NCBI GenBank assembly: GCA_032718475.1 | Contig: JAUCBJ010000844.1 | Location: forward strand, 1 to 64,000 | Origin: Nemertoderma westbladi | Lineage: Eukaryota > Animalia > Xenacoelomorpha | Length of the DNA: 64,000 bases | Reading direction: 5' to 3' | Shown: piece by piece, positions 8,774-64,000 of the stretch | Layout: each line of letters starts with the position of its first letter | How positions within the stretch are numbered: position 1 is the stretch's first letter | The notes under the pieces: generated by a model | What the model was told of the DNA's origin: nothing | Seen by the model: the letters and a program-made list of their open reading frames with translations, nothing else | Database searches by the model: none | Program-made: the position numbers and the translations under genes

Positions 8774-11700
8774 GTTTAATATTATATAACTTACGAGGTG
8801 GTTCAGCTGTTTAATATTATATAACTTATGAGGTGGTTCAGCTGTTTAATATTATTTAAGTTATGAGGTGGTTCAGCTGTTTAATATTATATAACTTATG
8901 AGGTGGTTCAGCTGTTTAATATTATATAACTTATGAGGTGGTTCAGCTGTTTAATATTCTATAACTTATGAGGTGGTTCAGCTGTTTAATATTATTTAAG
9001 TTATGAGGTGGTTCAGCTGTTTAATATTATTTAACTTATGAGGTGGTTCAGCTGTTTAATATTATTTAAGTTATAAGGTGATTCAGCTGTTTAATATTAT
9101 ATAACTTATGAGGTGGTTCAGCTGTTTAATATTATTTAAGTTATGAGGTGGTTCAGCTGTTTAATATTATATAACTTATGAGGTGGTTCAGCTGTTTAAT
9201 ATTCTATAACTTATGAGGTGGTTCAGCTGTTTAATATTATATAACTTACGAGGTGGTTCAGCTGTTTAATATTATATAACTTATGAGGTGGTTCAGCTGT
9301 TTAATATTATTTAAGTTATGAGGTGGTTCAGCTGTTTAATATTATATAACTTATGAGGTGGTTCAGCTGTTTAATATTATATAACTTATGAGGTGGTTCA
9401 GCTGTTTAATATTCTATAACTTATGAGGTGGTTCAGCTGTTTAATATTATTTAAGTTATGAGGTGGTTCAGCTGTTTAATATTATTTAACTTACGAGGTG
9501 GTTCAGCAGTTTAATATTATTTAACTTATGAGGTGATTCAGCTGTTTAATATTATTTAACTTACGAGGTGATTCAGCTGTTTAATATTATTTAACTTACA
9601 AGGTGGTTCAGCAGTTTAATATTATTTAACTTATGAGGTGGTTCAGCTGTTTAATATTATTTAACTTACGAGGTGATTCAGCTGTTTAATATTATTTAAG
9701 TTATGAGGTGGTTCAGCTGTTTAATATTATTTAAGTTATGAGGTGGTTCAGCTGTTTAATATTATATAACTTATGAGGTGGTTCAGCTGTTTAATATTCT
9801 ATAACTTATGAGGTGGTTCAGCTGTTTAATATTATTTAAGTTATGAGGTGGTTCAGCTGTTTAATATTATTTAACTTACAAGGTGGTTCAGCAGTTTAAT
9901 ATTATTTAACTTATGAGGTGGTTCAGCTGTTTAATATTATTTAACTTACGAGGTGATTCAGCTGTTTAATATTATTTAAGTTATGAGGTGGTTCAGCTGT
10001 TTAATATTATTTAAGTTATGAGGTGGTTCAGCTGTTTAATATTATTTAACTTACAAGGTTGTTCAGCTGTTTAATATTATTTAAGTTATGAGGTGGTTCA
10101 GCTGTTTAATATTATATAACTTATGAGGTGGTTCAGCTGTTTAATATTATTTAAGTTATGAGGTGGTTCAGCTGTTTAATATTATATAACTTATGAGGTG
10201 GTTCAGCTGTTTAATATTCTATAACTTATGAGGTGGTTCAGCTGTTTAATATTATTTAAGTTATGAGGTGGTTCAGCTGTTTAATATTATTTAAGTTATG
10301 AGGTGGTTCAGCTATTTAATATTATATAACTTATGAGGTGGTTCAGCTGTTTAATATTATTTAAGTTATGAGGTGGTTCAGCTGTTTAATATTATATAAC
10401 TTATGAGGTGGTTCAGCTGTTTAATATTCTATAACTTATGAGGTGGTTCAGCTGTTTAATATTCTATAACTTATGAGGTGGTTCAGCTGTTTAATATTAT
10501 TTAAGTTATGAGGTGGTTCAGCTGTTTAATATTATATAACTTATGAGGTGGTTCAGCTGTTTAATATTCTATAACTTATGAGGTGGTTCAGTTATTTAAT
10601 ATAATTTAACTTATGAGGTGGTTCAGCTGTTAAATATTATTTACCTTACAAGGTTGTTCACCTGTTTAATATTATTTAAGTTATGAGGTGGTTCAGCTGT
10701 TTAATATTATTTAATTTACGAGGTGGTTCAGTTATTTAATATAATTTAACTTATGAGGTGGTTCAGCTGTTAAATATTATTTAACTTACAAGGTTGTTCA
10801 CCTGTTTAATATTATTTAACTTATGAGGTGGTTCAGCTGTTTAATATTATATAACTTATGAGGTGGTTCAGCTGTTTAATATTATTTAACTTACGAGGTG
10901 GTTCAGCTGTTTAATAATATATAACTTATGAGGTGGTTCAGCTGTTTAATATTATATAACTTATGATGAGGTTCAGCTGTTTAATATTCTATAACTTATG
11001 AGGTGGTTCAGCTGTTTAATATTATTTAAGTTATGAGGTGGTTCAGCAGTTTAATATTATATAACTTATGAGGTGGTTCAGCTGTTTAATATTATTTAAA
11101 ATATGAGGTGGTTCAGCTGTTTAATATTATATAACTTATGAGGTGGTTCAGCAGTTTAATATTATATAACTTATGAGGTGGTTCAGCTGTTTAATATTAT
11201 TTAAGATATGAGGTGGTTCAGCTGTTTAATATTATATAACTTACGAGGTGGTTCAGCTGTTTAATATTATTTAACTTACGAGGTGGTTCAGCTGTTTAAT
11301 ATTATATAACTTATGAGGTGGTTCAGCTGTTTAATATTCTATAACTTATGAGGTGGTTCAGCTGTTTAATATTATATAACTTATGAGGTGGTTCAGCTGT
11401 TTAATATTATATAACTTACGAGGTGGTTCAGCTGTTTAATATTATATAACTTATGAGGTGGTTCAGCTGTTTAATATTATTTAAGTTATGAGGTGTTTCA
11501 GCTGTTTAATATTATATAACTTATGAGGTGGTTCAGCTGTTTAATATTATATAACTTATGAGGTGGTTCAGCTGTTTAATATTCTATAACTTATGAGGTG
11601 GTTCAGCTGTTTAATATTATTTAAGTTATGAGGTGGTTCAGCTGTTTAATATTATTTAACTTATGAGGTGGTTCAGCTGTTTAATATTATTTAAGTTATA

Positions 11701-14700
11701 AGGTGATTCAGCTGTTTAATATTATATAACTTATGAGGTGGTTCAGCTGTTTAATATTATTTAAGTTATGAGGTGGTTCAGCTGTTTAATATTATATAAC
11801 TTATGAGGTGGTTCAGCTGTTTAATATTCTATAACTTATGAGGTGGTTCAGCTGTGTAATATTATATAACTTACGAGGTGGTTCAGCTGTTTAATATTAT
11901 ATAACTTATGAGGTGGTTCAGCTGTTTAATATTCTATAACTTATGAGGTGGTTCAGCTGTTTAATATTATTTAAGTTATGAGGTGGTTCAGCTGTTTAAT
12001 ATTATTTAACTTACGAAGTGGTTCAGCAGTTTAATATTATTTAACTTATGAGGTGATTCAGCTGTTTAATATTATTTAACTTACGAGGTGATTCAGCTGT
12101 TTAATATTATTTAACTTACAAGGTGGTTCAGCAGTTTAATATTATTTAACTTATGAGGTGGTTCAGCTGTTTAATATTATTTAACTTACGAGGTGATTCA
12201 GCTGTTTAATATTATTTAAGTTATGAGGTGGTTCAGCTGTTTAATATTATATAACTTATGAGGTGGTTCAGCTGTTTAATATTATTTAAGTTATGAGGTG
12301 GTTCAGCTGTTTAATATTATTTAAGTTATGAGGTGGTTCAGCTGTTTAATATTATTTAATTTACAAGGTTGTTCAGCTGTTTAATATTATATAACTTATG
12401 AGGAGGTTCAGCTGTTTAATATTCTATAACTTATGAGGTGGTTCAGCTGTTTAATATTATTTAAGTTATGAGGTGGTTCAGCAGTTTAATATTATATAAC
12501 TTATGAGGTGGTTCAGCTGTTTAATATTATTTAAGTTATGAGGTGGTTCAGCTGTTTAATATTATATAACTTATGAGGTGGTTCAGCTGTTTAATATTAT
12601 TTAAGTTATGAGGTGGTTCAGCTGTTTAATATTATATAACTTATGAGGTGGTTCAGCAGTTTAATATTATATAACTTATGAGGTGGTTCAGCTGTTTAAT
12701 ATTATTTAAGTTATGAGGTGGTTCAGCTGTTTAATATTATATAACTTATGAGGTGGTTCAGCTGTTTAATATTCTATAACTTATGAGGTGGTTCAGCTGT
12801 TTAATATTATTTAAGTTATGAGGTGGTTCAGCAGTTTAATATTATATAACTTATGAGGTGGTTCAGCTGTTTAATATTATTTAAGTTATGAGGTGGTTCA
12901 GCTGTTTAATATTATATAACTTATGAGGTGGTTCAGCTGTTTAATATTCTATAACTTATGAGGTGGTTCAGCTGTTTAATATTATATAACTTACGAGGTG
13001 GTTCAGCTGTTTAATATTATATAACTTATGAGGTGGTTCAGCTGTTTAATATTATTTAAGTTATGAGGTGGTTCAGCTGTTTAATATTATATAACTTATG
13101 AGGTGGTTCAGCTGTTTAATATTATATAACTTATGAGGTGGTTCAGCTGTTTAATATTCTATAACTTATGAGGTGGTTCAGCTGTTTAATATTATTTAAG
13201 TTATGAGGTGGTTCAGCTGTTTAATATTATTTAACTTATGAGGTGGTTCAGCTGTTTAATATTATTTAAGTTATAAGGTGATTCAGCTGTTTAATATTAT
13301 ATAACTTATGAGGTGGTTCAGCTGTTTAATATTATTTAAGTTATGAGGTGGTTCAGCTGTTTAATATTATATAACTTATGAGGTGGTTCAGCTGTTTAAT
13401 ATTCTATAACTTATGAGGTGGTTCAGCTGTTTAATATTATATAACTTACGAGGTGGTTCAGCTGTTTAATATTATATAACTTATGAGGTGGTTCAGCTGT
13501 TTAATATTATTTAAGTTATGAGGTGGTTCAGCTGTTTAATATTATATAACTTATGAGGTGGTTCAGCTGTTTAATATTATATAACTTATGAGGTGGTTCA
13601 GCTGTTTAATATTCTATAACTTATGAGGTGGTTCAGCTGTTTAATATTATTTAAGTTATGAGGTGGTTCAGCTGTTTAATATTATTTAACTTACGAGGTG
13701 GTTCAGCAGTTTAATATTATTTAACTTATGAGGTGATTCAGCTGTTTAATATTATTTAACTTACGAGGTGATTCAGCTGTTTAATATTATTTAACTTACA
13801 AGGTGGTTCAGCAGTTTAATATTATTTAACTTATGAGGTGGTTCAGCTGTTTAATATTATTTAACTTACGAGGTGATTCAGCTGTTTAATATTATTTAAG
13901 TTATGAGGTGGTTCAGCTGTTTAATATTATTTAAGTTATGAGGTGGTTCAGCTGTTTAATATTATATAACTTATGAGGTGGTTCAGCTGTTTAATATTCT
14001 ATAACTTATGAGGTGGTTCAGCTGTTTAATATTATTTAAGTTATGAGGTGGTTCAGCTGTTTAATATTATTTAACTTACAAGGTGGTTCAGCAGTTTAAT
14101 ATTATTTAACTTATGAGGTGGTTCAGCTGTTTAATATTATTTAACTTACGAGGTGATTCAGCTGTTTAATATTATTTAAGTTATGAGGTGGTTCAGCTGT
14201 TTAATATTATTTAAGTTATGAGGTGGTTCAGCTGTTTAATATTATTTAACTTACAAGGTTGTTCAGCTGTTTAATATTATTTAATTTATGAGGTGGTTCA
14301 GCTGTTTAATATTATATAACTTATGAGGTGGTTCAGCTGTTTAATATTATTTAAGTTATGAGGTGGTTCAGCTGTTTAATATTATATAACTTATGAGGTG
14401 GTTCAGCTGTTTAATATTCTATAACTTATGAGGTGGTTCAGCTGTTTAATATTATTTAAGTTATGAGGTGGTTCAGCTGTTTAATATTATTTAAGTTATG
14501 AGGTGGTTCAGCTGTTTAATATTATATAACTTATGAGGTGGTTCAGCTGTTTAATATTATTTAAGTTATGAGGTGGTTCAGCTGTTTAATATTATATAAC
14601 TTATGAGGTGGTTCAGCTGTTTAATATTCTATAACTTATGAGGTGGTTCAGCTGTTTAATATTCTATAACTTATGAGGTGGTTCAGCTGTTTAATATTAT

Positions 14701-17700
14701 TTAAGTTATGAGGTGGTTCAGCTGTTTAATATTATATAACTTATGAGGTGGTTCAGCTGTTTAATATTCTATAACTTATGAGGTGGTTCAGTTATTTAAT
14801 ATAATTTAACTTATGAGGTGGTTCAGCTGTTAAATATTATTTACCTTACAAGGTTGTTCACCTGTTTAATATTATTTAAGTTATGAGGTGGTTCAGCTGT
14901 TTAATATTATTTAATTTACGAGGTGGTTCAGTTATTTAATATAATTTAACTTATGAGGTGGTTCAGCTGTTAAATATTATTTAACTTACAAGGTTGTTCA
15001 CCTGTTTAATATTATTTAACTTATGAGGTGGTTCAGCTGTTTAATATTATATAACTTATGAGGTGGTTCAGCTGTTTAATATTATTTAACTTACGAGGTG
15101 GTTCAGCTGTTTAATAATATATAACTTATGAGGTGGTTCAGCTGTTTAATATTATATAACTTATGATGAGGTTCAGCTGTTTAATATTCTATAACTTATG
15201 AGGTGGTTCAGCTGTTTAATATTATTTAAGTTATGAGGTGGTTCAGCAGTTTAATATTATATAACTTATGAGGTGGTTCAGCTGTTTAATATTATTTAAA
15301 ATATGAGGTGGTTCAGCTGTTTAATATTATATAACTTATGAGGTGGTTCAGCAGTTTAATATTATATAACTTATGAGGTGGTTCAGCTGTTTAATATTAT
15401 TTAAGATATGAGGTGGTTCAGCTGTTTAATATTATATAACTTACGAGGTGGTTCAGCTGTTTAATATTATTTAACTTACGAGGTGGTTCAGCTGTTTAAT
15501 ATTATATAACTTATGAGGTGGTTCAGCTGTTTAATATTCTATAACTTATGAGGTGGTTCAGCTGTTTAATATTATATAACTTATGAGGTGGTTCAGCTGT
15601 TTAATATTATATAACTTACGAGGTGGTTCAGCTGTTTAATATTATATAACTTATGAGGTGGTTCAGCTGTTTAATATTATTTAAGTTATGAGGTGTTTCA
15701 GCTGTTTAATATTATATAACTTATGAGGTGGTTCAGCTGTTTAATATTATATAACTTATGAGGTGGTTCAGCTGTTTAATATTCTATAACTTATGAGGTG
15801 GTTCAGCTGTTTAATATTATTTAAGTTATGAGGTGGTTCAGCTGTTTAATATTATTTAACTTATGAGGTGGTTCAGCTGTTTAATATTATTTAAGTTATA
15901 AGGTGATTCAGCTGTTTAATATTATATAACTTATGAGGTGGTTCAGCTGTTTAATATTATTTAAGTTATGAGGTGGTTCAGCTGTTTAATATTATATAAC
16001 TTATGAGGTGGTTCAGCTGTTTAATATTCTATAACTTATGAGGTGGTTCAGCTGTGTAATATTATATAACTTACGAGGTGGTTCAGCTGTTTAATATTAT
16101 ATAACTTATGAGGTGGTTCAGCTGTTTAATATTCTATAACTTATGAGGTGGTTCAGCTGTTTAATATTATTTAAGTTATGAGGTGGTTCAGCTGTTTAAT
16201 ATTATTTAACTTACGAAGTGGTTCAGCAGTTTAATATTATTTAACTTATGAGGTGATTCAGCTGTTTAATATTATTTAACTTACGAGGTGATTCAGCTGT
16301 TTAATATTATTTAACTTACAAGGTGGTTCAGCAGTTTAATATTATTTAACTTATGAGGTGGTTCAGCTGTTTAATATTATTTAACTTACGAGGTGATTCA
16401 GCTGTTTAATATTATTTAAGTTATGAGGTGGTTCAGCTGTTTAATATTATATAACTTATGAGGTGGTTCAGCTGTTTAATATTATTTAAGTTATGAGGTG
16501 GTTCAGCTGTTTAATATTATATAACTTATGAGGTGGTTCAGCTGTTTAATATTATTTAAGTTATGAGGTGTTTCAGCTGTTTAATATTATATAACTTATG
16601 AGGTGGTTCAGCTGTTTAATATTATATAACTTATGAGGTGGTTCAGCTGTTTAATATTCTATAACTTATGAGGTGGTTCAGCTGTTTAATATTATTTAAG
16701 TTATGAGGTGGTTCAGCTGTTTAATATTATTTAACTTATGAGGTGGTTCAGCTGTTTAATATTATTTAAGTTATAAGGTGATTCAGCTGTTTAATATTAT
16801 ATAACTTATGAGGTGGTTCAGCTGTTTAATATTATTTAAGTTATGAGGTGGTTCAGCTGTTTAATATTATATAACTTATGAGGTGGTTCAGCTGTTTAAT
16901 ATTCTATAACTTATGAGGTGGTTCAGCTGTGTAATATTATATAACTTACGAGGTGGTTCAGCTGTTTAATATTATATAACTTATGAGGTGGTTCAGCTGT
17001 TTAATATTCTATAACTTATGAGGTGGTTCAGCTGTTTAATATTATTTAAGTTATGAGGTGGTTCAGCTGTTTAATATTATTTAACTTACGAAGTGGTTCA
17101 GCAGTTTAATATTATTTAACTTATGAGGTGATTCAGCTGTTTAATATTATTTAACTTACGAGGTGATTCAGCTGTTTAATATTATTTAACTTACAAGGTG
17201 GTTCAGCAGTTTAATATTATTTAACTTATGAGGTGGTTCAGCTGTTTAATATTATTTAACTTACGAGGTGATTCAGCTGTTTAATATTATTTAAGTTATG
17301 AGGTGGTTCAGCTGTTTAATATTATATAACTTATGAGGTGGTTCAGCTGTTTAATATTATTTAAGTTATGAGGTGGTTCAGCTGTTTAATATTATATAAC
17401 TTATGAGGTGGTTCAGCTGTTTAATATTCTATAACTTATGAGGTGGTTCAGCTGTTTAATATTATTTAAGTTATGAGGTGGTTCAGCTGTTTAATATTAT
17501 TTAAGTTATGAGGTGGTTCAGCTGTTTAATATTATATAACTTATGAGGTGGTTCAGCTGTTTAATATTATTTAACTTACGAGGTGGTTCAGCTGTTTAAT
17601 ATTACTTAACTTACAAGGTGGTTCAGCTGTTTAATATTATTTAACTTATGAGGTGGTTCAGCTGTTTAATATTATTTAAGTTATGAGGTGGTTCAGCTGT

Positions 17701-20700
17701 TTAATATTATTTAATTTACAAGGTTGTTCAGCTGTTTAATATTATATAACTTATGAGGAGGTTCAGCTGTTTAATATTCTATAACTTATGAGGTGGTTCA
17801 GCTGTTTAATATTATTTAAGTTATGAGGTGGTTCAGCAGTTTAATATTATATAACTTATGAGGTGGTTCAGCTGTTTAATATTATTTAAGTTATGAGGTG
17901 GTTCAGCTGTTTAATATTATATAACTTATGAGGTGGTTCAGCTGTTTAATATTATTTAAGTTATGAGGTGGTTCAGCTGTTTAATATTATATAACTTATG
18001 AGGTGGTTCAGCAGTTTAATATTATATAACTTATGAGGTGGTTCAGCTGTTTAATATTATTTAAGTTATGAGGTGGTTCAGCTGTTTAATATTATATAAC
18101 TTATGAGGTGGTTCAGCTGTTTAATATTCTATAACTTATGAGGTGGTTCAGCTGTTTAATATTATTTAAGTTATGAGGTGGTTCAGCAGTTTAATATTAT
18201 ATAACTTATGAGGTGGTTCAGCTGTTTAATATTATTTAAGTTATGAGGTGGTTCAGCTGTTTAATATTATATAACTTATGAGGTGGTTCAGCTGTTTAAT
18301 ATTCTATAACTTATGAGGTGGTTCAGCTGTTTAATATTATATAACTTACGAGGTGGTTCAGCTGTTTAATATTATATAACTTATGAGGTGGTTCAGCTGT
18401 TTAATATTATTTAAGTTATGAGGTGGTTCAGCTGTTTAATATTATATAACTTATGAGGTGGTTCAGCTGTTTAATATTATATAACTTATGAGGTGGTTCA
18501 GCTGTTTAATATTCTATAACTTATGAGGTGGTTCAGCTGTTTAATATTATTTAAGTTATGAGGTGGTTCAGCTGTTTAATATTATTTAACTTATGAGGTG
18601 GTTCAGCTGTTTAATATTATTTAAGTTATAAGGTGATTCAGCTGTTTAATATTATATAACTTATGAGGTGGTTCAGCTGTTTAATATTATTTAAGTTATG
18701 AGGTGGTTCAGCTGTTTAATATTATATAACTTATGAGGTGGTTCAGCTGTTTAATATTCTATAACTTATGAGGTGGTTCAGCTGTTTAATATTATATAAC
18801 TTACGAGGTGGTTCAGCTGTTTAATATTATATAACTTATGAGGTGGTTCAGCTGTTTAATATTATTTAAGTTATGAGGTGGTTCAGCTGTTTAATATTAT
18901 ATAACTTATGAGGTGGTTCAGCTGTTTAATATTATATAACTTATGAGGTGGTTCAGCTGTTTAATATTCTATAACTTATGAGGTGGTTCAGCTGTTTAAT
19001 ATTATTTAAGTTATGAGGTGGTTCAGCTGTTTAATATTATTTAACTTACGAGGTGGTTCAGCAGTTTAATATTATTTAACTTATGAGGTGATTCAGCTGT
19101 TTAATATTATTTAACTTACGAGGTGATTCAGCTGTTTAATATTATTTAACTTACAAGGTGGTTCAGCAGTTTAATATTATTTAACTTATGAGGTGGTTCA
19201 GCTGTTTAATATTATTTAACTTACGAGGTGATTCAGCTGTTTAATATTATTTAAGTTATGAGGTGGTTCAGCTGTTTAATATTATTTAAGTTATGAGGTG
19301 GTTCAGCTGTTTAATATTATATAACTTATGAGGTGGTTCAGCTGTTTAATATTCTATAACTTATGAGGTGGTTCAGCTGTTTAATATTATTTAAGTTATG
19401 AGGTGGTTCAGCTGTTTAATATTATTTAACTTACAAGGTGGTTCAGCAGTTTAATATTATTTAACTTATGAGGTGGTTCAGCTGTTTAATATTATTTAAC
19501 TTACGAGGTGATTCAGCTGTTTAATATTATTTAAGTTATGAGGTGGTTCAGCTGTTTAATATTATTTAAGTTATGAGGTGGTTCAGCTGTTTAATATTAT
19601 TTAACTTACAAGGTTGTTCAGCTGTTTAATATTATTTAAGTTATGAGGTGGTTCAGCTGTTTAATATTATATAACTTATGAGGTGGTTCAGCTGTTTAAT
19701 ATTATTTAAGTTATGAGGTGGTTCAGCTGTTTAATATTATATAACTTATGAGGTGGTTCAGCTGTTTAATATTCTATAACTTATGAGGTGGTTCAGCTGT
19801 TTAATATTATTTAAGTTATGAGGTGGTTCAGCTGTTTAATATTATTTAAGTTATGAGGTGGTTCAGCTGTTTAATATTATATAACTTATGAGGTGGTTCA
19901 GCTGTTTAATATTATTTAAGTTATGAGGTGGTTCAGCTGTTTAATATTATATAACTTATGAGGTGGTTCAGCTGTTTAATATTCTATAACTTATGAGGTG
20001 GTTCAGCTGTTTAATATTCTATAACTTATGAGGTGGTTCAGCTGTTTAATATTATTTAAGTTATGAGGTGGTTCAGCTGTTTAATATTATATAACTTATG
20101 AGGTGGTTCAGCTGTTTAATATTCTATAACTTATGAGGTGGTTCAGCTGTTTAATATTATTTAAGTTATGAGGTGGTTCAGCTGTTTAATATTATTTAAG
20201 TTATGAGGTGGTTCAGCTGTTTAATATTATATAACTTATGAGGTGGTTCAGCTGTTTAATATTATTTAAGTTATGAGGTTGTTCAGCTGTTTAATATTAT
20301 TTAAGTTATGAGGTGGTTCAGCTGTTTAATATTATATAACTTATGAGGTGGTTCAGCTGTTTAATATTATTTAACTTACGAGGTGGTTCAGCAGTTTAAT
20401 ATTATTTAACTTATGAGGTGATTCAGCTGTTTAATATTATTTAACTTACGAGGTGATTCAGCTGTTTAATATTATTTAACTTACAAGGTGGTTCAGCAGT
20501 TTAATATTATTTAACTTATGAGGTGGTTCAGCTGTTTAATATTATTTAACTTACGAGGTGATTCAGCTGTTTAATATTATTTAAGTTATGAGGTGGTTCA
20601 GCTGTTTAATATTATTTAAGTTATGAGGTGGTTCAGCTGTTTAATATTATTTAACTTACAAGGTTGTTCAGCTGTTTAATATTATTTAAGTTATGAGGTG

Positions 20701-22828
20701 GTTCAGCTGTTTAATATTATATAACTTATGAGGTGGTTCAGCTGTTTAATATTATTTAAGTTATGAGGTGGTTCAGCTGTTTAATATTATATAACTTATG
20801 AGGTGGTTCAGCTGTTTAATATTCTATAACTTATGAGGTGGTTCAGCTGTTTAATATTATTTAAGTTATGAGGTGGTTCAGCTGTTTAATATTATTTAAG
20901 TTATGAGGTGGTTCAGCTGTTTAATATTATATAACTTATGAGGTGGTTCAGCTGTTTAATATTATTTAAGTTATGAGGTGGTTCAGCTGTTTAATATTAT
21001 ATAACTTATGAGGTGGTTCATCTGTTTAATATTCTATAACTTATGAGGTGGTTCAGCTGTTTAATATTATATAACTTATGAGGTGGTTCAGCTGTGTAAT
21101 ATTATTTAACTTACGAGGTGATTCAGCTGTTTAATATTGTATAACTTATGAGGTGGTTCAGCTGTTTAATAATATATAACTTATGAGGTGGTTCAGCTGT
21201 TTAATAATATATAACTTATGAGGTGGTTCAGCTGTTTAATATTATTTAACTTATGAGGTGGTTCAGCTGTTTAATATTATTTAACTTATGAGGTGGTTCA
21301 GCAGTTTAATATTATTTAACTTATGAGGTGGTTCAGCTGTTTAATATTATTTAACTTACGAGGTGGTTCAGCAGTTAATATTATTTAACTTATGAGGTGA
21401 TTCAGCTGTTTAATATTATTTAACTTACAAGGTGGTTCAGCAGTTTAATATTATTTAACTTATGAGGTGGTTCAGCTGTTTAATATTATTTAACTTACGA
21501 GGTGGTTCAGCTGTTTAATAATATATAACTTATGAGGTGGTTCAGCTGTTTAATATTATTTAACTTATGAGGTGGTTCAGCTGTTTGATATTATTTAACT
21601 CATGAGGTGGTTCAGCTGTTTAATATTATTTAACTTATGAGGTGGTTCAGCAGTTTAATAATATATAACTTATGAGGTGGTTCAGCTGTTTAATAATATA
21701 TAACTTATGAGGTGGTTCAGCTGTTTAATATTATTTAACTTATGAGGTGGTTCAGCAGTTTAATATTATTTAACTTATGAGGTGGTTCAGCAGTTTAATA
21801 ATATATAACTTATGAGGTGGTTCAGCTGTTTAATAATATATAACTTATGAGGTGGTTCAGCTGTTTAATATTATTTAACTTATGAGGTGGTTCAGCTGTT
21901 TAATAATATATAACTTATGAGGTGGTTCAGCTGTTTAATATTATTTAACTTATGAGGTGGTTCAGCTGTTTAATATTATTTAACTTATGAGGTGGTTCAG
22001 CAGTTTAATATTATTTAACTTATGAGGTGGTTCAGCTGTTTAATATTATTTAACTTACGAGGTGATTCAGCTGTTTAATATTGTATAACTTATGAGGTGG
22101 TTCAGCTGTTTAATAATATATAACGTATGAGGTGGTTCAGCTGTTTAATAATATATAACTTATGAGGTGGTTCAGCTGTTTAATATTATTTAACTTACGA
22201 GGTGGTTCAGCAGTTTAATATTATTTAACTTATGAGGTGATTCAGCTGTTTAATATTATTTAACTTACAAGGTGGTTCAGCAGTTTAATATTATTTAACT
22301 TATGAGGTGGTTCAGCTGTTTAATATTATTTAACTTATGAGGTGGTTCAGCTGTTTAATATTATTTAACTTATGAGGTGGTTCAGCTGTTTAATATTATT
22401 TAACTTATGAGGTGGTTCAGCTGTTTAATATTATTTAACTTACGAGGTGATTCAGCTGTTTAATATTGTATAACTTATGAGGTGGTTCAGCTATTTAATA
22501 TTATTTAACTTACGAGGTGGTTCAGCTGTTTAATATTATATAACTTATGAGGTGGTTCAGCTGTGTAATATTATTTAACTTACGAGGTGATTCAGCTGTT
22601 TAATATTGTATAACTTATGAGGTGGTTCAGCTGTTTAATAATATATAACTTATGAGGTGGTTCAGCTGTTTAATATTATTTAACTTATGAGGTGGTTCAG
22701 CTGTTTAATAATGTATAACTTATGAGGTGGTTCAGCTGTTGAATATTATTTAACTTACGAGGTGGTTCAGCTGTAACTTACAAGGTGGTTCAGCAGATTA
22801 ATATTATATAACTTACAAGGTGGTTCAG
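8774..22828 (-). repeat. 35-bp satellite, about 400 copies, derived from the exon 22817 donor junction
   Basis: Plus-strand unit ttaatattatataacttatgaggtggttcagctgt; minus strand ACAGCTGAACCACCTC(A/G)TAAGTTATATAATATTAA; higher-order periods of 4200 and 875 bp. Confidence 0.97.
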
Positions 22829-22898
22829 GTGTTGGCTCTTTTGGCGACGGGGGCGGAGGCTTTTCCTTCTTTTTTTTCTTTTTCTTCTTCTTTATTAC
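22817..22898 (-). CDS. Same gene, Lys/Pro-rich exon (VIKKKKKKKKKEKPPPPSPKEPTPEPP); probable NLS-like basic tract
   Basis: ttaactcAG|82 nt|GTAAGT; starts in phase 0, matching the phase-0 end of exon 29668-29834; ends in phase 1. Confidence 0.8.
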
Positions 22899-27692: not shown

Positions 27693-27697
27693 CATAG

Positions 27698-29667: not shown

Positions 29668-29834
29668 CGGTGGAGGTTCGTGTACTTTCATATGATCTGT
29701 TAACTCCTCAGCAGTATAAAAGATTTCGTCGCATTTATTACACCTGTGTTGGGGTCCGTGTACCGAATTCCAATGAGTGTCTAATTCATCTTTGGTAGCG
29801 AATCTCTGGTCGCATTTATCGCAGGGGAATGGAA
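29668..29834 (-). CDS. C2H2 zinc-finger gene, internal exon (2 fingers: CDKC..HWNSVH, CNKC..HMKVH, then EPPP)
   Basis: tttttAG|167 nt|GTTAGT; phase 1 to 0; overlaps ORF 29539..29850. Confidence 0.9.
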
Positions 29835-51000: not shown

Positions 51001-54000
51001 AATAGCAAACTTTATACTTACTGTAATAGCAAACTTTATACTTACTGTAATAGCAAACTTTATACTTACTGTAATAGCAAACCTTATACTTAATGTAATA
51101 GCAAACTTTATACTTACTGTAATAGCAAACTTTATACTTACTGTAATAGCAAACTTTATACTTACGGTAATAGTAAACTTTATACTTACTGTAATAGCAA
51201 ACTTTAGACTTACTGTAATAGCAACCTTTATACTTACTGTAATAGCAAACTTTAGACTTACTGTAATAGCAAACTTTATACTTACTGTAATAGCAAACTT
51301 TATACTTACGGTAATAGTAAACTTTATACTTACTGTAATAGCAAACTTTAGACTTACTGTAATAGCAAACTTTATACTTACTGTAATAGCAAACTTTATA
51401 CTTACGGTAATAGTAAACTTTATACTTACAGTAATAGCAAACTTTATACTTACTGTAATAGCAAACTTTAGACTTACTGTAATAGCAAACTTTATACTTA
51501 CTGTAATAGCAAACTTTATACTTACTGTAATAGCAAACTTTATACTTACGGTAATAGTAAACTTTATACTTACAGTAATAGCAAACTTTATACTTACTGT
51601 AATAGCAAACTTTAGACTTACTGTAATAGCAAACTTTATACTTACTGTAATAGCAAACTTTAGACTTACTGTAATAGCAAACTTTATACTTACTGTAATA
51701 GCAAACTTTATACTTACGGTAATAGTAAACTTTATACTTACTGTAATAGCAAACTTTAGACTTACTGTAATAGCAAACTTTATACTTACTGTAATAGCAA
51801 ACTTTAGACTTACTGTAATAGCAAACTTTATACTTACTGTAATAGCAAACTTTATACTTACGGTAATAGTAAACTTTATACTTACTGTAATAGCAAACTT
51901 TAGACTTACTGTAATAGCAAACTTTATACTTACTGTAATAGCAAACTTTATACTTACGGTAATAGTAAACTTTATACTTACAGTAATAGCAAACTTTATA
52001 CTTACTGTAATAGCAAACTTTAGACTTACTGTAATAGCAAACTTTATACTTACTGTAATAGCAAACCTTATACTTACTGTAATAGCAAACTTTATACTTA
52101 CTGTAATAGCAAACTTTATACTTACTGTAATAGCAAACTTTATACTTACTGTAATAGCAAACTTTATACTTACTGTAATAGCAAACTTTATACTTACTGT
52201 ATTAGCAAATTTTATACTTACTGTATTAGCAAATTTTATACTTACTGTAATGAGCAAACTTTATACTTACTGTAATAGCAAACTTTATACTTACTGTAAT
52301 AGCAAACTTTATACTTACGGTAATAGTAAACTTTATACTTACAGTAATAGCAAACTTTATACTTACTGTAATAGCAAACTTTATACTTACTGTAATAGCA
52401 AACTTTATACTTACTGTAATAGCAAACTTTATACTTACTGTAATAGTAAACTTTATACTTACTATAATAGCAAACTTTATACTTACTGTAATAGCAAACT
52501 TTATACTTACTGTAATAGCAAACCTTATACTTACTGTAATAGCAAACTTTATACTTACTGTAATACCAAACTTTATACTTACTGTAATAGCAAACTTTAT
52601 ACTTACTGTAATAGCAAACTTTATACTTACTGTAATAGCAAACCTTATACTTACTGTAATAGCAAACTTTATACTTACTGTAATAGCAAACTTTATACTT
52701 ACTATAATAGCAAACCTTATACTTACTGTAATAGCAAACTTTATACTTACTGTAATAGCAAACTTTATACTTACTATAATAGCAAACCTTATACTTACTG
52801 TAATAGTAAACTTTATACTTACTGTAATAGCAAACCTTATACTTACTGTAATAGCAAACTTTATACTTACTGTAATAGCAAACTTTATACTTACTGTAAT
52901 AGCAAACCTTATACTTACTGTAATAGCAAACTTTATACTTACTGTAATAGCAAACTTTATACTTACTATAATAGCAAACCTTATACTTACAGTAATAGCA
53001 AACTTTATACTTACTGTAATAGCAAACTTTATACTTACAGTAATAGCAAACTTTATACTTACAGTAATAGCAAACTTTATACTTACTGTAATAGCAAACT
53101 TTATACTTACTGTAATAGCAAACTTTATACTTACTGCAATAGCAAACTTTAGACTTACTGTAATAGCAAACTTTATACTTACTGTAATAGCAAACTTTAT
53201 ACTTACAGTAATAGCAAACTTTAGACTTACTGTAATAGCAAACTTTATACGTACTGTAATAGCAAACTTTATACTTACTGTAATAGCAAACTTTATACTT
53301 ACTGCAATAGCAAACTTTAGACTTACTGTAATAGCAAACTTTATACTTACTGTAATAGCAAACTTTATACTTACAGTAATAGCAAACTTTATACTTACTG
53401 TAATAGCAAACTTTATATTTACTGTAATAGCAAACTTTATACTTACTGTAATAGCAAACTTTATACTTACTGTAATAGCAAACTTTATACTTACTGTATT
53501 AGCAAATTTTATACTTACTGTAATAGCAAACTTTATACTTACTATAATAGCAAATTTTATACTTACTGTAATAGCAAACTTTATACTTACAGTAATAGCA
53601 AACTTTATACTTACTGTAATAGCAAACTTTATACTTACAGTAATAGCAAACTTTATACTTACTGTAATAGCAAACTTTATACTTACAGTAATAGCAAACT
53701 TTATACTTACAGTAATAGCAAACTTTATACTTACTGTAATAGCAAACTTTATACTTACAGTAATAGCAAACTTTATACTTACTGTAATAGCAAACTTTAT
53801 ACTTACAGTAATAGCAAACTTTATACTTACAGTAATAGCAAACTTTATACTTACTGTAATAGCAAACTTTATACTTACAGTAATAGCAAACTTTATACTT
53901 ACAGTAATAGCAAACTTTATACTTACTGTAATAGCAAACTTTATACTTACGGTAATAGTAAACTTTATACTTACTGTAATAGCAAACTTTAGACTTACTG

Positions 54001-56060
54001 TAATAGCAAACTTTATACTTACTGTAATAGCAAACTTTATACTTCGGTAATAGTAAACTTTATACTTACAGTAATAGCAAACTTTATACTTGCTGTAATA
54101 GCAAACCTTATACTTACTGTAATAGCAAACTTTATACTTACTGTAATAGCAAACTTTATACTTACTGCAATAGCAAACTTTATACTTACAGTAATAGCAA
54201 ACTTTATACTTACTGTAATAGCAAACTTTATACTTACTGTAATAGCAAACTTTATACTTACTGTAATAGCAAACTTTATACTTACAGTAATAGCAAACTT
54301 TATACTTACAGTAATAGCAAACTTTATACTTACTGTAATAGCAAACTTTATACTTACTGTAATAGCAAACTTTATACTTACTGCAATAGCAAACTTTAGA
54401 CTTACTGTAATAGCAAACTTTATACTTACTGTAATAGCAAACTTTATACTTACAGTAATAGCAAACTTTAGACTTACTGTAATAGCAAACTTTATACGTA
54501 CTGTAATAGCAAACTTTATACTTACTGTAATAGCAAACTTTATACTTACTGCAATAGCAAACTTTAGACTTACTGTAATAGCAAACTTTATACTTACTGT
54601 AATAGCAAACTTTATACTTACAGTAATAGCAAACTTTATACTTACTGTAATAGCAAACTTTATATTTACTGTAATAGCAAACTTTATACTTACTGTAATA
54701 GCAAACTTTATACTTACTGTAATAGCAAACTTTATACTTACTGTATTAGCAAATTTTATACTTACTGTAATAGCAAACTTTATACTTACTATAATAGCAA
54801 ATTTTATACTTACTGTAATAGCAAACTTTATACTTACAGTAATAGCAAACTTTATACTTACTGTAATAGCAAACTTTATACTTACAGTAATAGCAAACTT
54901 TATACTTACTGTAATAGCAAACTTTATACTTACAGTAATAGCAAACTTTATACTTACAGTAATAGCAAACTTTATACTTACTGTAATAGCAAACTTTATA
55001 CTTACAGTAATAGCAAACTTTATACTTACTGTAATAGCAAACTTTATACTTACAGTAATAGCAAACTTTATACTTACAGTAATAGCAAACTTTATACTTA
55101 CTGTAATAGCAAACTTTATACTTACAGTAATAGCAAACTTTATACTTACAGTAATAGCAAACTTTATACTTACTGTAATAGCAAACTTTATACTTACGGT
55201 AATAGTAAACTTTATACTTACTGTAATAGCAAACTTTAGACTTACTGTAATAGCAAACTTTATACTTACTGTAATAGCAAACTTTATACTTCGGTAATAG
55301 TAAACTTTATACTTACAGTAATAGCAAACTTTATACTTGCTGTAATAGCAAACCTTATACTTACTGTAATAGCAAACTTTATACTTACTGTAATAGCAAA
55401 CTTTATACTTACTGCAATAGCAAACTTTATACTTACAGTAATAGCAAACTTTATACTTACTGTAATAGCAAACTTTATACTTACTGTAATAGCAAACTTT
55501 ATACTTACTGCAATAGCAAACTTTATACTTACAGTAATAGCAAACTTTATACTTACTGTAATAGCAAACCTTATACTTACTGTAATAGCAAACTTTATAC
55601 TTACTGTAATAGCAAACTTTATACTTACTGCAATAGCAAACTTTATACTTACAGTAATAGCAAACTTTATACTTACTATAATAGCAAATTTTATACTTAC
55701 TGTAATAGCAAACCTTATACTTACTGTAATAGCAAACTTTATACTTACTGTAATAGCAAACTTTATACTTACTGTAATAGCAAACTTTATACTTACTGTA
55801 ATAGCAAACCTTATACTTACTGTAATAGCAAACTTTATACTTACTGTAATAGCAAACTTTATACTTACTGTAATAGCAAACCTTATACTTACTGCAATAG
55901 CAAACTTTATACTTACTGTAATAGCAAACTTTATACTTACTGTAATAGCAAACTTTATACTTACTGTAATAGCAAACTTTATACTTACTGTAATAGCAAA
56001 CTTTATACTTACTGTAATAGCAAACTTTATACTTACTGTAATAGCAAACTTTATACTTAC
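30056..56060 (-). repeat. 24-bp satellite, about 1080 copies (26 kb), equal to the first 24 nt of the intron after exon 56061
   Basis: Minus-strand unit GTAAGTATAAAGTTTGCTATTACA; begins exactly at the donor; higher-order periods of 621, 1105, 3121 and 5185 bp. Confidence 0.97.
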
Positions 56061-56138
56061 AATGAATAAGTTTATGTTCTTCCATAGCTGAATTCGATTC
56101 AAATACTTCATCGCACAAAGGACAGGGAAACTTTGGCG
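56061..56138 (-). CDS. C2H2 zinc-finger gene, internal exon (PKFPCPLCDEVFESNSAMEEHKLIH)
   Basis: ttttcAG|78 nt|GTAAGT; phase 1-1; starts with the same CGCCAAAGTTT as exon 56232-56309, suggesting exon duplication. Confidence 0.9.
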
Positions 56139-56231: not shown

Positions 56232-56309
56232 CATGTATTTTATTGTGTACTTCCACTTCAGGTTTAGTGTGAAATCTTTCATCGCACTTTGGACATTTAA
56301 ACTTTGGCG
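56232..56309 (-). CDS. C2H2 zinc-finger gene, internal exon (PKFKCPKCDERFHTKPEVEVHNKIH)
   Basis: atttcAG|78 nt|GTGAGT; phase 1-1. Confidence 0.9.
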
Positions 56310-56614: not shown

Positions 56615-59183
56615 GTGAGTTTCACAATAACTTATTAATATTATTAACTTACGGTGTTTCTCGTGAGTATGTTTGACAATAACTTATTAATATTATTAAA
56701 TTAACTTACGGTGTTTCTCGTGAGTATGTTTGACAATAACTTATTAATATTATTAAATAAACTTACGGTGTTTCTCGTGAGTATGTTTGACAATAACTTA
56801 TTAATATTAAATAAACTTACGGTGTTTCTCGTGAGTATGTTTGACAATAACTTATTAATATTATTAAATAAACTTACGGTGTTTCTCGTGAGTATGTTTC
56901 ACAATAACTTATTAATATTAAATAAACTTACGGTGTTTCTCGTGAGTATGTTTGACAATAACTTATTAATATTATTAAATAAACTTACGGTGTTTCTCGT
57001 GAGTATGTTTCACAATAACTTATTAATATTAAATAAACTTACGGTGTTTCTCGTGAGTATGTTTGACAATAACTTATTAATATTATTAAATAAACTTACG
57101 GTGTTTCTCGTGAGTATGTTTGACAATAACTTATTAATATTATTAAATAAACTTACGGTGTTTCTCGTGAGTATGTTTGACAATAACTTATTAATATTAT
57201 TAAATAAACTTACGGTGTTTCTCGTGAGTATGTTTGACAATAACTTATTAATATTATTAAATAAACTTACGGTGTTTCTCGTGAGTATGTTTGACAATAA
57301 CTTATTAATATTATTAAATAAACTTACGGTGTTTCTCGTGAGTATGTTTAACAATAACTTATTAATATTATTAAATAAACTTACGGTGTTTCTCGTGAGT
57401 ATGTTTGACAATAACTTATTAATATTATTAAATAAACTTACGGTGTTTCTCGTGAGTATGTTTGACAATAACTTATTAATATTGTTAAATAAACTTACGG
57501 TGTTTCTCGTGAGTATGTTTGACAATAACTTATCAATATTATTAAATAAACTTACGGTGTTTCTCGTGAGTATGTTTGACAATAACTTATTAATATTATT
57601 AAATAAACTTACGGTGTTTCTCGTGAGTATGTTTGACAATAACTTATTAATATTATTAAATAAACTTACGGTGTTTCTCGTGAGTATGTTTGACAATAAC
57701 TTATTAATATTATTAAATAAACTTACGGTGTTTCTCGTGAGTATGTTTGACAATAACTTATTAATATTATTAAATAAACTTACGGTGTTTCTCGTGAGTA
57801 TGTTTGACAATAACTTATTAATATTAAATAAACTTACGGTGTTTCTCGTGAGTATGTTTGACAATAACTTATTAATATTAAATAAACTTACGGTGTTTCT
57901 CGTGAGTATGTTTGACAATAACTTATTAATATTATTAAATAAACTTACGGTGTTTCTCGTGAGTATGTTTGACAATAACTTATTAATATTAAATAAACTT
58001 ACGGTGTTTCTCGTGAGTATGTTTGACAATAACTTATTAATATTGTTAAATAAACTTACGGTGTTTCTCGTGAGTATGTTTGACAATAACTTATTAATAT
58101 TATTAAATAAACTTACGGTGTTTCTCGTGAGTATGTTTGACAATAACTTATTAATATTATTAAATAAACTTACGGTGTTTCTCGTGAGTATGTTTGACAA
58201 TAACTTATTAATATTATTAAATAAACTTACGGTGTTTCTCGTGAGTATGTTTGACAATAACTTATTAATATTAAATAAACTTACGGTGTTTCTCGTGAGT
58301 ATGTTTGACAATAACTTATTAATATTAAATAAACTTACGGTGTTTCTCGTGAGTATGTTTGACAATAACTTATTAATATTATTAAATAAACTTACGGTGT
58401 TTCTCGTGAGTATGTTTCACAATAACTTATTAATATTATTAAATAAACTTACGGTGTTTCTCGTGAGTATGTTTGACAATAACTTATTAATATTATTAAA
58501 TAAACTTACGGTGTTTCTCGTGAGTATGTTTGACAATAACTTATTAATATTAAATAAACTTACGGTGTTTCTCGTGAGTATGTTTGACAATAACTTATTA
58601 ATATTAAATAAACTTACGGTGTTTCTCGTGAGTATGTTTGACAATAACTTATTAATAAGAAATAAACTTACGGTGTTTCTCGTGAGTATGTTTGACAATA
58701 ACTTATTAATATTAAATAAACTTACGGTGTTTCTCGTGAGTATGTTTCACAATAACTTATTAATACTAAATAAACTTACGGTGTTTCTCGTGAGTATGTT
58801 TGACAATAACTTATTAATATTAAATAAACTTACGGTGTTTCTTGTGAGTATGTTTGACAATAACTTATTAATATTAAATAAACTTACGGTGTTTCTAGTG
58901 AGTATGTTTGACAATAACTTATTAATATTAAATAAACTTACGGTGTTTCTCGTGAGTATGTTTGACAATAACTTATTAATATTAAATAAACTTACGGTGT
59001 TTCTCGTGAGTATGTTTGACAATAACTTATTAATATTAAATAAACTTACGGTGTTTCTCGTGAGTATGTTTGACAATAACTTATTAATATTATTAAATAA
59101 ACTTACGGTGTTTCTCGTGAGTATGTTTGACAATAACTTATTAATACTAAATAAACTTACGGTGTTTCTCGTGAGTATGTTTG
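56615..59183 (-). repeat. 54/57-bp minisatellite, about 45 copies, derived from the exon 59161 donor junction
   Basis: Minus-strand unit CAAACATACTCACGAGAAACACC|GTAAGTTTATTTAAT(AAT)ATTAATAAGTTATTGT. Confidence 0.97.
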
Positions 59184-59241
59184 TCGAGCTCTTCTTGAGT
59201 AAAGAATTTCGCTTTACATTTTGAACAACAGAAATGGGGAA
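59161..59241 (-). CDS. C2H2 zinc-finger gene, internal exon (PHFCCSKCKAKFFTQEELDKHTHEKH)
   Basis: tccttAG|81 nt|GTAAGT; phase 1-1. Confidence 0.88.
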
Positions 59242-59384
59242 CTAAGGATAAAGTAGAAGAAATCATTTAAGCCGAGATATGATAATGAATAAAAGATAAC
59301 GAATAAATACCATTAAACTTTAAACAACTATAGAATCATAGTTTCTCAATGGCTAAAATTATATATTCTATTTTATATTCTCAC

Positions 59385-59498
59385 TTGGTTTATGTACGCT
59401 ATTCCAATGTTCTTCCAATTCTTCTGTTGTTTCAAACTTTGGTGGTTTATACCCCGTCTCATCGCCATGTTCAGCAATACAAGCATCGCAAGGAAATC
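59385..59498 (-). CDS. C2H2 zinc-finger gene, internal exon (finger with insertion: FPCDACIAEHGDETGYKPPKFETTEELEEHWNSVHKP)
   Basis: tttcttAG|114 nt|GTGAGA; phase 1-1; open frame; the HWNSVH ending also occurs in exon 29668-29834. Confidence 0.85.
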
Positions 59499-59847
59499 CT
59501 AAGAAATACACTAATTACGAATTACATTCAAATAAACTTGCCGAGTTTTGTTTAACCCTATAGTCACCTAGTAAGTCCATCTTTCTTCGAAACCAACAAA
59601 CCCCTACAGCCTACAAGGTTGAGGAATAACCAGGTACTGGAGCAATATCGATGGAGACATTTTTTAAGCGTTTGTTATGAGCGGCCAGTTTCTACACCAA
59701 CAAACATCCATCAAGTTTGTTTCCATAATCTAGAACAGATTGGGGCTGTTGTCTCCTAAATTGCCAAACTGGCCGCTCAGGGCCACCATAGTTTGTAGAT
59801 AAAGTTTGAAAGCGAATAAAACTTCTGACTAACAACTAAGAATTCTA

Positions 59848-60255
59848 CAGTGGCTGATTGCGGCCAATTATTTCCATTTTTTAAAACCTTTTCCACCCGG
59901 GTGTAAAACATTTATCATCCGGGTGAAAAACATTTATAACCAAAAACATCAGGACTCTGAACACATGTGTTAGTTTCCTTATAAATAATATCGAAAGATC
60001 ATTTTAATCCATTTTGGCGAATTAATATCTCGACTAATGTTAAAAATCAATTACGGGTAAGGATCAGGTTACAGTGGCATGTTGTATATAAATATAAATA
60101 TGTTATATAAATTTAAACAATAAACGAAAGTCAATAGTTAAACATTTAAATGTTTTTCACCCGCGTGATAAATGTTTTTCACCCGGGTGATAAATGTTTT
60201 TCACCCGGGTGAAAAACATTAAAAAATGAAAATAATTGGCCGCAATCAGCCACAG
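59848..60255. mobile_element. MITE, Tc1/mariner-like (TA TSD)
   Basis: TA|cagtggctgattgcggccaattattt ... aaataattggccgcaatcagccacag|TA; subterminal cacccgggtg repeats. Confidence 0.8.
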
Positions 60256-60400
60256 TAGAATTCCGAAGGTAAAACTATCTCTGTTTCCTATTTCATACAA
60301 TCGGGGGGGGGGGGGGGGGGGGGGGGATCACTGTTTGAGAAGCTAACTAGGTATGCCATGACTTTCACCCCTATCGATACTGATACAATTATAAACCCAC

Positions 60401-60631
60401 CGTGGCCATCCATGTGTTCATCTAATTCATCTTGTGTCTCGAACGACTGGCCACATTTCCGACATTTATGCCAGTGTTTGCCGTGGTCGTGTTCCAACAA
60501 ATCTTCCTCGGAATGGAACGCCTCCGAACATTTGGAACAAATAAACTTTGGATCGTGGATTTTCAGATGTTCTTTAAGTTCCGCTTGAGTGTCGACTAGT
60601 TCTCCACACACCCAGCAACCAAGTTGTGGTT
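60401..60631 (-). CDS. C2H2 zinc-finger gene, internal exon (3 fingers: CWVC..HLKIH, CSKC..HDHGKH, CRKC..HMDGH)
   Basis: gttctAG|231 nt|GTGGGT; phase 1-1; overlaps ORF 60288..60611. Confidence 0.9.
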
Positions 60632-60793
60632 CTAGAACGTAAACAGTTTATGTGTACTTGTAACCATAGTTCAAAATTAACTTAATTGTGTATTGTATAC
60701 GGGACAGTGTTGACTTATTGCGTACAATGATACACTTACAATGTACACTTACTGATACTGAGATGAGTTAATGATGGTTGTTGCATGATATTA

Positions 60794-63054: not shown

Positions 63055-63060
63055 AGGTAT

Positions 63061-63149
63061 AACTTACTGTGTATGTGTTGGGGTGTATGTGTGTATGTTA
63101 ACTTACTGTGTAGGTGTTAACGTGTATGTGTGTATATTAACTTACTGTG
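63061..63149 (-). repeat. 39-bp repeat with 3 donor copies at the exon 63146 junction
   Basis: CACA|GTAAGTTA recurs three times at 39-bp spacing (plus-strand aacttactgtg at about 63061, 63100 and 63139). Confidence 0.85.
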
Positions 63150-63235
63150 CACATTGGCCATGTGAAGGTCCAGTTCTTCTTGGGTTGAGAAAGTCGCGTG
63201 GTGGCAATGCATCTCTTCGCAGAGGTAGGCAGGGG
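63146..63235 (-). CDS. C2H2 zinc-finger gene, internal exon (1 finger: PAYLCEEMHCHHATFSTQEELDLHMANVH)
   Basis: Minus strand reads ccttacAG|90 nt|GTAAGT; phase 1-1; C-x4-C...F...L..H-x4-H pattern; in frame with the next exon. Confidence 0.85.
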
Positions 63236-63308
63236 CTGTAAGGTAATATATATAATTTAATACTCATAAGTAAAGGATAGTGAAAACATATATATATATA
63301 GATATATA

Positions 63309-64000
63309 CAAACTAACCGTGTTCAACGTGAGTGTGGGATTCTAGCTCATCAGCTGTTAGCAAATGTTCATCAATATCAACAAACTAACCGTGTTCAAAG
63401 TGAGTGTGGGATTCTAGCTCATCGGCTGTTAGGAAATGTTCATCAATATCAACAAACTAACCGTGTTCAAAGTGAGTGTGGGATTCTAGCTCATCAGCTG
63501 TTAGGAAATGTTCATCAATATCAACAAACTAACCGTGTTCAAAGTGAGTGTGGGATTCTAGCTCATCAGCTGTTAGGAAATGTTCATCAATATCAACAAA
63601 CTAACCGTGTTCAACGTGAGTGTGGGATTCTAGCTCATCAGCTGTTAGGAAATGTTCATCAATATCAACAAACTAACCGTGTTCAAAGTGAGTGTGGGAT
63701 TCTAGCTCATCAGCTGTTAGGAAATGTTCATCAATATCAACAAACTAACCGTGTTCAAAGTGAGTGTGGGATTCTAGCTCATCAGCTGTTAGGAAATGTT
63801 CATCAATATCAACAAACTAACCGTGTTCAAAGTGAGTGTGGGATTCTAGCTCATCAGCTGTTAGGAAATGTTCATCAATATCAACAAACTAACCGTGTTC
63901 AAAGTGAGTGTGGGATTCTAGCTCATCAGCTGTTAGGAAATGTTCATTAATATCAACAAACTAACCGTGTTCAAAGTGAGTGTGGGATTCCAGCTCATCA
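63309..64000 (-). repeat. 72-bp minisatellite (at least 9.5 copies, runs off the window) made of a half zinc-finger exon plus donor
   Basis: Minus-strand unit GATGAACATTTCCTAACAGCTGATGAGCTAGAATCCCACACTCACTTTGAACACG|GTTAGTTTGTTGATATT translates as DEHFLTADELESHTHFEH. Confidence 0.95.

Follow-up and report, generated by a model that had tools for sequence, protein, structure and literature searches.

We analyzed a window of 64,000 nucleotides (nt), positions 1 to 64,000 of contig JAUCBJ010000844.1 in the Nemertoderma westbladi assembly GCA_032718475.1. The window contains part of a C2H2 zinc-finger gene on the reverse strand, and five tandem arrays within the introns of that gene together fill 68% of the window. 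Comparison of the repeat units with the exons supports reading the five arrays as separate copies, each of the donor (5' splice site) junction of its own intron, in gene-sense orientation. The locus likely belongs to the known class of donor-spanning minisatellites called mirages, from which it would differ in scale and density rather than in kind.

The zinc-finger gene and its donor arrays

The exons and arrays are listed in Table 1, in which exons are lettered in the order of transcription. Exons b to i carry the expected AG..GT flanks and join to 921 nt encoding 306 amino acids, with no stop codon and 10 C2H2-like motifs. Of the seven finger exons scanned, six match Pfam zf-C2H2 families and one, exon b, does not. 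The ninth donor, that of exon a, is a putative one derived from the 72-bp array unit. When the arrays are subtracted, five of the eight whole introns measure 82 to 343 nt. The intron between exons b and c is 2.4 kb long, the largest whole intron reaches 26.2 kb, and the intron after exon i, which ends outside the window, spans at least 22.8 kb and still exceeds 8.7 kb without its array. We considered whether exon i could be the last exon, with the 35-bp array as a 3' untranslated region, and think this unlikely because a transcript contig from sequencing run X4 (see below) continues 1,425 nt past exon g, whereas exons h and i together account for 249 nt.

An exhaustive protein search returned generic C2H2 proteins, with a best identity of 42% among the 150 matches listed, and a word-index search with exon c gave no match. 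The closest named protein, the uncharacterized acoel protein XP_063716250.1 (Symsagittifera roscoffensis LOC134843867), has an acidic run of C2H2 fingers followed by a Lys/Pro-rich linker, as the gene does here, and shows identities of 64% to exon f, 46% to exon h, and 40% to exon c. Nothing in the window matches the two ends of this protein, N-terminal or C-terminal, and the likeness is one of shared plan. A search of positions 1 to 8773 with the C-terminal part as the query did not find the next exon. Two crinoid proteins show weak similarity to this C-terminal region.

Tandem Repeats Finder (TRF) returned 21 rows for the window, the five donor arrays among them; each of the three arrays that exceed 2 kb lies at a donor. 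A preliminary description of this DNA had placed five large arrays here, and TRF confirms the coordinates of each. It had also proposed how the units are composed, and for three of them our comparison agrees: the 35-bp unit combines 16 nt of the exon i tail (14 of 16 matched) with 19 nt of intron, the 54/57-bp unit combines 23 nt of the exon e tail (23 of 23 matched) with 31 to 34 nt of intron, and the 39-bp array has three donor copies. The 39-bp units differ from each other at 5 of 39 nt and have only 4 nt in common with the exon b tail. Two other proposals held in part. The 24-bp unit is literally the first 24 nt of its intron, and the array begins at intron position +1, but only its first 10 nt match the unique flank behind the array; the remainder weakly resembles the tail of exon g (p = 0.08 versus shuffles), and does so better than it resembles seven other exon tails. 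The 72-bp unit appears to consist of approximately 55 nt of finger-exon tail and 17 nt of intron head, as proposed, but it has the donor GTTAGT instead of GTAAGT, and the putative exon that seeded it, exon a, falls past the window edge. This unit encodes the C-terminal half of a finger, followed by GT and an in-frame TAG.

The units had been said to share nothing except the donor hexamer. Short words common to units do exist (ATAATATTAA and AACAGCTGA; p of approximately 0.01 each, not significant over 10 pairs), and the claim of independent origin stands. Because the exon part of the 54/57-bp unit and that of the 35-bp unit each match only their own exon, these two arrays are independent in origin, and a common ancestor of the units is rejected on the same ground.

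Table 1. Exons of the zinc-finger gene and donor arrays in the 64,000-nt window
Feature	Position	Strand	Description
Zinc-finger gene, part	within the window	-	Eight whole exons (b to i) plus exon a past the window edge
72-bp array	63308..64000	-	9.6 copies or more, truncated where the window ends; donor GTTAGT, with the last copy at 63317
Exon b	63146..63235	-	90 nt; one C2H2-like finger; donor GTAAGT; no Pfam match
39-bp array	63060..63149	-	TRF x2.3; three donor copies at 63145, 63106, and 63067
Exon c	60401..60631	-	231 nt; three fingers; donor GTGGGT; no array
Exon d	59385..59498	-	114 nt; one atypical finger; donor GTGAGA; no array
Exon e	59161..59241	-	81 nt; one finger; donor GTAAGT; first donor used
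54/57-bp array	56619..59183	-	46 units, all beginning GTAAGT; TRF 57 bp x46
Exon f	56232..56309	-	78 nt; one finger; donor GTGAGT; no array; spliced to exon g in X4
Exon g	56061..56138	-	78 nt; one finger; donor ATT|GTAAGT; first donor used
24-bp satellite	30056..56060	-	1,084 units (TRF x1083), 26 kb; 1,026 begin GTAAGT
Exon h	29668..29834	-	167 nt; two fingers; donor GTTAGT; no array
Exon i	22817..22898	-	82 nt; Lys/Pro-rich linker; donor GTAAGT
35-bp satellite	8773..22832 (TRF 8773-22774)	-	Approximately 400 units, 14 kb

Donor use and the placement of the arrays

We compared contigs of four sequencing runs with positions 55990 to 56720. Of six runs, five contain the window or part of it, and none is recorded as RNA. 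Run X4, although guessed to be DNA, behaves as a transcriptome. In a 2,306-nt contig of this run (record 25, depth 150), exons f and g are both present with no mismatch and are joined over a GT..AG intron of 93 nt. The contig leaves exon g at 56061, and the X4 depth on the 24-bp array is zero. Upstream of exon f, the contig matches just the 23 nt that are common to exon e and the 54/57-bp unit; because a later donor would lengthen the match beyond 23 nt, the first donor of this array is the one used. In this one contig of one run, the first donor is therefore used at both arrays checked, those of exons e and g. Given that the first copy, joined to the intact exon, is used, all later copies are spliced out. 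In addition, the share of the sampled words of positions 59150 to 60640 found in X4 is 0.24; with exons c, d, and e as its sole content there, the expected share is 0.23. The gene is real and expressed. Of the splice junctions predicted in the preliminary description, e-f, f-g, and the exon g donor are present in the X4 contig.

The DNA contigs bear on whether the arrays are real. A contig of run X2 bridges exon g and the 24-bp array by 41 nt; a contig of run X1 reaches only 10 nt past the exon g donor and was not counted as bridging. Contigs of the 57-bp unit are present in X1 (depth 573, versus 23.3 for single-copy sequence) and in X2 (306 versus 19.1). The resulting ratios of approximately 25 and 16, which bear on possible length polymorphism or somatic instability of the array, can be set against the 26 such units in the window, with the caveat that contig depth is not copy number. 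The sample of X1 or X2 may be the source of the assembly.

To quantify the association with donors, we computed a tandem-copy score at the 9 donors, the 8 acceptors, 1,500 random intronic positions, and 40 non-donor GT[AGT]AG sites. The score was at least 28 at donors a, b, e, g, and i, 3 to 5 at donors c, d, f, and h, and 6 or lower at all eight acceptors. As background, 3.4% of the random intronic positions and none of the 40 non-donor sites reached a score of 15. Within the window, the donor arrays depart from this background (binomial p = 5e-6), and the contrast between donors (5 of 9) and acceptors (0 of 8) has p = 0.02, in agreement with the earlier observation that the arrays copy donor junctions in gene sense and that none sits at an acceptor. 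Arrays are found at all four GTAAGT donors, compared to one of the five other donors (p = 0.04, post hoc). Because approximately 1.3 windows this extreme are expected among 250,000, a genome-wide rule is not provable from one window. We found no genome-wide count of such arrays at donors versus acceptors in the literature, subscription journals not being covered, and the accessible parts of PMC2812944, PMC10078293, and PMC12783039 hold no such count.

Unused GTAAGT sites in gene sense at 60752, 8318, 6715, and 517 (reverse strand) are followed by imperfect duplications of 11 to 13 bp. These sites may represent seeds of mirages or, alternatively, the donors of small exons that were not recognized.

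Array turnover and known systems

The arrays carry the marks of satellite turnover. Between 46 and 49 distinct unit types are arranged in nested higher-order blocks, at lags of 52, 104, 130, and 216 units in the 24-bp array and of 120 and 153 units in the 35-bp array. Divergence is even along the arrays (2 to 3% in the 24-bp array and 5 to 7% in the 35-bp array), and odd units are found at edges, namely the first units of the 35-bp array and the last units of the 54/57-bp array. GT is kept in 46 of 46 units of the 54/57-bp array, 1,052 of 1,084 units of the 24-bp array, and 3 of 3 units of the 39-bp array, whereas the 35-bp array keeps it in no more than 77 of its 402 units. Among the 1,059 full-length units of the 24-bp array, 28 vary at the T of GT, which is above most positions. 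In the 35-bp array, ATAAGT is the majority unit start and CCTC|GTAA has mostly turned into CCTC|ATAA (308 versus 49), leaving gaps of up to 23 units (approximately 800 bp) between GTAAGT copies. This change resembles CpG deamination and suggests gene-body methylation. Given that GT is lost in 81% of the 35-bp units, the copies need not stay donors.

The preliminary description had taken the copy numbers of the arrays to be stages of one process. We rejected such a time series on the divergence of the three-copy 39-bp array, which is the most diverged (5 of 39 nt) and has almost no exon tail. Such features are more in line with an array that is old and has shrunk than with a young one.

Mirages are reportedly defined in a paper by Canestro et al. 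2002. In the lancelet, as described in the accessible parts of PMC3087553 and PMC3902484, they are tandem duplications of exon-intron boundaries in Adh3, the globin genes BflGb6 and BflGb9, troponin C, and PGBD5 that leave splicing undisturbed, and their origin is called unclear (PMC3087553). The arrays described here resemble them, within that account, in being tandem copies of exon-intron boundaries, in unit size (Adh3 units are 10 to 72 bp), in the presence of several arrays per gene (as in PGBD5), in that many units, though not all, keep the splice signal, in normal splicing (here for exons e and g), and in a homogenized interior with odd edge units. The sizes of 24, 35, 39, 54/57, and 72 bp lie inside the range of 10 to 160 bp given for mirage cases in the accessible part of PMC3087553, and the nested higher-order repeats together with the odd edge units match the turnover described there for BflGb6. 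The differences, judged from the same text, are those of number and placement: amphioxus mirages have 2 to 7 copies, whereas two arrays here have approximately 400 and 1,084 copies (14 and 26 kb) with higher-order structure, and lancelet mirages occur at both boundaries, whereas the five in this gene are all at donors.

Human donor arrays provide a second comparison, for which we relied on the accessible part of PMC1557585. The 37-bp variable number tandem repeat in intron 7 of F7 has five to nine identical donors, of which only the most upstream is used, as shown experimentally. Arrays of 5 to 26 donor copies are described for F7, IFI6-16, CBS, LMNB2, and PDGF, and splicing in IFI6-16 and CBS additionally takes place at the one or two copies that follow (PMC1557585). 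As in F7, copying at the locus examined here begins with a unit that straddles an exon-intron junction, donors recur along the intron, and splicing takes the most upstream of them (seen here at exons e and g); the 39-bp unit, with 4 nt of exon tail, is also as in F7. Unlike the human cases as far as they are described there, each with one array per gene, this gene has five arrays and up to 1,084 copies.

Regarding intron size, the locus recalls the gigantic introns of Y-linked genes in Drosophila (PMC11207136), although those introns measure hundreds of kb to Mb, compared to 26.2 kb for the largest whole intron here.

Several other repeats and mobile elements lie in the window. Intron h-i holds a young, full-length-looking long interspersed nuclear element (LINE) at 23764-29118 on the reverse strand, in gene sense. 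Its first open reading frame (ORF1, 27698-28744) has 348 amino acids from stop to stop, and ORF2 (24356-27697) has 1,113 amino acids with no stop and contains RVT_1 and Exo_endo_phos domains. The element lies between the copies of a 25-bp direct repeat, which differ by a single mismatch, and has 14 repeats of 30 bp at the start of the ORF2 frame; its relatives reach 45 to 51% identity at best. An interspersed repeat of very high copy number (56385-56615), with a summed contig depth of up to approximately 10,000 times single copy, adjoins the last unit of the 54/57-bp array; a 29-nt word from it was found in 0 metagenome contigs. The end of the 35-bp array adjoins a region (8304-8775, reverse strand) with a duplicated near-palindromic 20-mer and an open frame of 143 amino acids, in which Pfam gave only a weak unrelated match. 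We take this region to recall a decayed gag of the BEL/Pao type. Intron c-d contains an element at 59840-60263 that resembles a miniature inverted-repeat transposable element: its inverted ends are 101 bp long and 90% identical, and 22-bp repeats lie between them. Intron b-c contains broken frames at 61225-62792, on the opposite strand to the gene, that resemble the decayed start of a LINE endonuclease/reverse transcriptase. A degenerate tandem repeat of approximately 160 bp (2123-2944, 72% matches) is tied to no exon found.

Gigantic introns of Y-linked genes in Drosophila are filled with satellites, and their size, like that of the introns here, is driven by tandem repeats; these repeats are not known to be copies of donors of the gene in which they lie.

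Origin of the arrays

In our judgment, the arrays probably arose as local duplications across the donor that were tolerated through use of the first donor and then inflated by ordinary satellite turnover to 2.5, 14, and 26 kb. Seeding would occur when slippage or microhomology-guided repair copies 24 to 72 bp across a donor, and 4-nt microhomologies are present at the unit joints of the 35-bp array (AACA) and the 54/57-bp array (AAAC). The first copy would stay on the intact exon and be used, as it is at exons e and g and as we infer for exons a, b, and i. Donors may be the favored place because, in short introns with the branch point and acceptor at the 3' end, many harmless duplications would overlap the donor. 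In a toy model of harmless duplications that spares the last 30 nt of the intron, donor overlap is 33 to 100% for introns of 82 to 93 nt. Growth would then proceed by nested block duplication and homogenization, as in other satellites, and the signature of such growth is visible in the higher-order blocks. The arrays are most likely passengers without function. A fixed distance of the breakpoint from the donor is rejected, given that the fraction of the unit made up of intron varies between 0.21 and 0.58.

Several points weigh against this explanation. In the toy model, donor overlap falls to 6 to 34% at 231 to 343 nt and to a few percent at kilobase size, and because the intron between exons b and c and that after exon i are long today, the argument from geometry needs introns that were ancestrally short. 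Intron geometry helps, yet it may not suffice to explain the placement at donors. The neutral model does not predict the bias of array-bearing donors toward GTAAGT, nor does it predict the contrast between sense and antisense strands at unused GTAAGT sites given below. Among the array-bearing exons, donor use is directly seen for e and g, and because contigs drop rare variants, inner donors may still see minor use.

These points are where targeting of the mutation itself would come in. U1 binding would tether a new 5' splice site to RNA polymerase II (Pol II), and pausing or an R-loop there could generate short duplications at strong donors, which would later grow. We regard this as unlikely, while giving it some weight. 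It would account for the contrast between donors and acceptors and for the preference for GTAAGT donors reported above, although these counts are tiny. A strand test, which left out the arrays, the 30-bp repeat in the LINE, a 163-bp repeat, and the four array-free donors, gave a score of at least 8 at four of eight sense GTAAGT sites versus none of five antisense sites among those unused in splicing (p = 0.002); over 984 hexamers, two were as extreme, GTAAGT itself included. Duplication scores at GT[AGT]AG were also higher at sense (n = 43) than at antisense (n = 40) sites (p = 0.009). However, this test was designed after the pattern was seen, two of the eight sense sites are one pair, and some of the unused sites may be donors of unrecognized exons. 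The accessible part of 10.1101/2020.10.19.344200 describes how U1 keeps the 5' splice site at the RNA exit of Pol II, but the step from that contact to DNA duplication is only hypothetical. All five human cases in the accessible part of PMC1557585 are donor arrays, whereas acceptor mirages exist in amphioxus BflGb6 (accessible part of PMC3087553). Targeting also has to contend with breakpoints that have no fixed offset from the donor, and neither the arrays nor the donor regions fold unusually as RNA (nine stretches, z from -1.33 to +2.6). A stronger form of the idea makes the 5' splice site a mutational hot spot in this lineage: U1 recognition of nascent GTAAGT would promote tandem duplication of the underlying DNA on the transcribed strand only, even at unused sites, first-donor splicing would hide the damage, and the seeds would grow into satellites of 10 to 30 kb. 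We find this version quite doubtful.

Selection could instead act on which arrays persist. U1 suppresses premature polyadenylation, a function known as telescripting, and would aid elongation through AT-rich DNA. Any intronic repeat could then begin to grow, but only arrays with U1 sites in their units might reach tens of kilobases, an explanation that strikes us as improbable. It is in keeping with the finding that the three arrays longer than 2 kb are all donor arrays and with the retention of GT in the 24-bp and 54/57-bp arrays, and protection may be needed, given the poly(A)-like hexamers in sense orientation (391 ATTAAA in the 35-bp array and 917 TATAAA in the 24-bp array). Against it, the stronger poly(A)-like signal is that of the 35-bp array, the very array in which most units lost GT, the T of GT in the 24-bp array varies more than most positions, and the small arrays are left unexplained. 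That the assembler created the arrays or inflated their lengths seems to us very improbable indeed. The 14-kb and 26-kb lengths do come from the assembly alone, and the run contigs bear on the 54/57-bp and 24-bp arrays; on the other side, the nested higher-order blocks of 46 to 49 unit types argue against inflation by an assembler, and the X2 contig that enters the 24-bp array and the depth ratios of the 57-bp unit, which are not copy numbers, also speak against an artifact.

Three further readings were rejected. A chain of recursive (ratchet) splicing fails on the motif YAG|GTRAG, which occurs 0 times in all five arrays. Tandem exon duplication is contradicted by the 72-bp unit, which has its in-frame TAG right behind the donor and no AG before the exon part. 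Masking of inner donors by RNA structure finds no support in the nine stretches that were folded.

As a case of donor-spanning duplication, this locus is the largest and densest among those compared in the accessible parts of the cited papers, with five independent arrays and four array-free donors within the same expressed gene. The donor of exon g has a poor exon side (ATT|GT) and is followed by over 1,000 perfect copies of GTAAGT, which makes the locus a hard natural test of first-donor choice. The locus also illustrates a path by which a 24-bp slip can become a satellite intron of 26 kb. Should donor targeting fail to be confirmed genome-wide, it is a striking but ordinary mirage. Donor targeting, if true genome-wide, would be a direct link of splicing to mutation and to the birth of satellites, and if the 5' splice site is indeed a mutational hot spot, splicing would write satellite DNA into its own introns.

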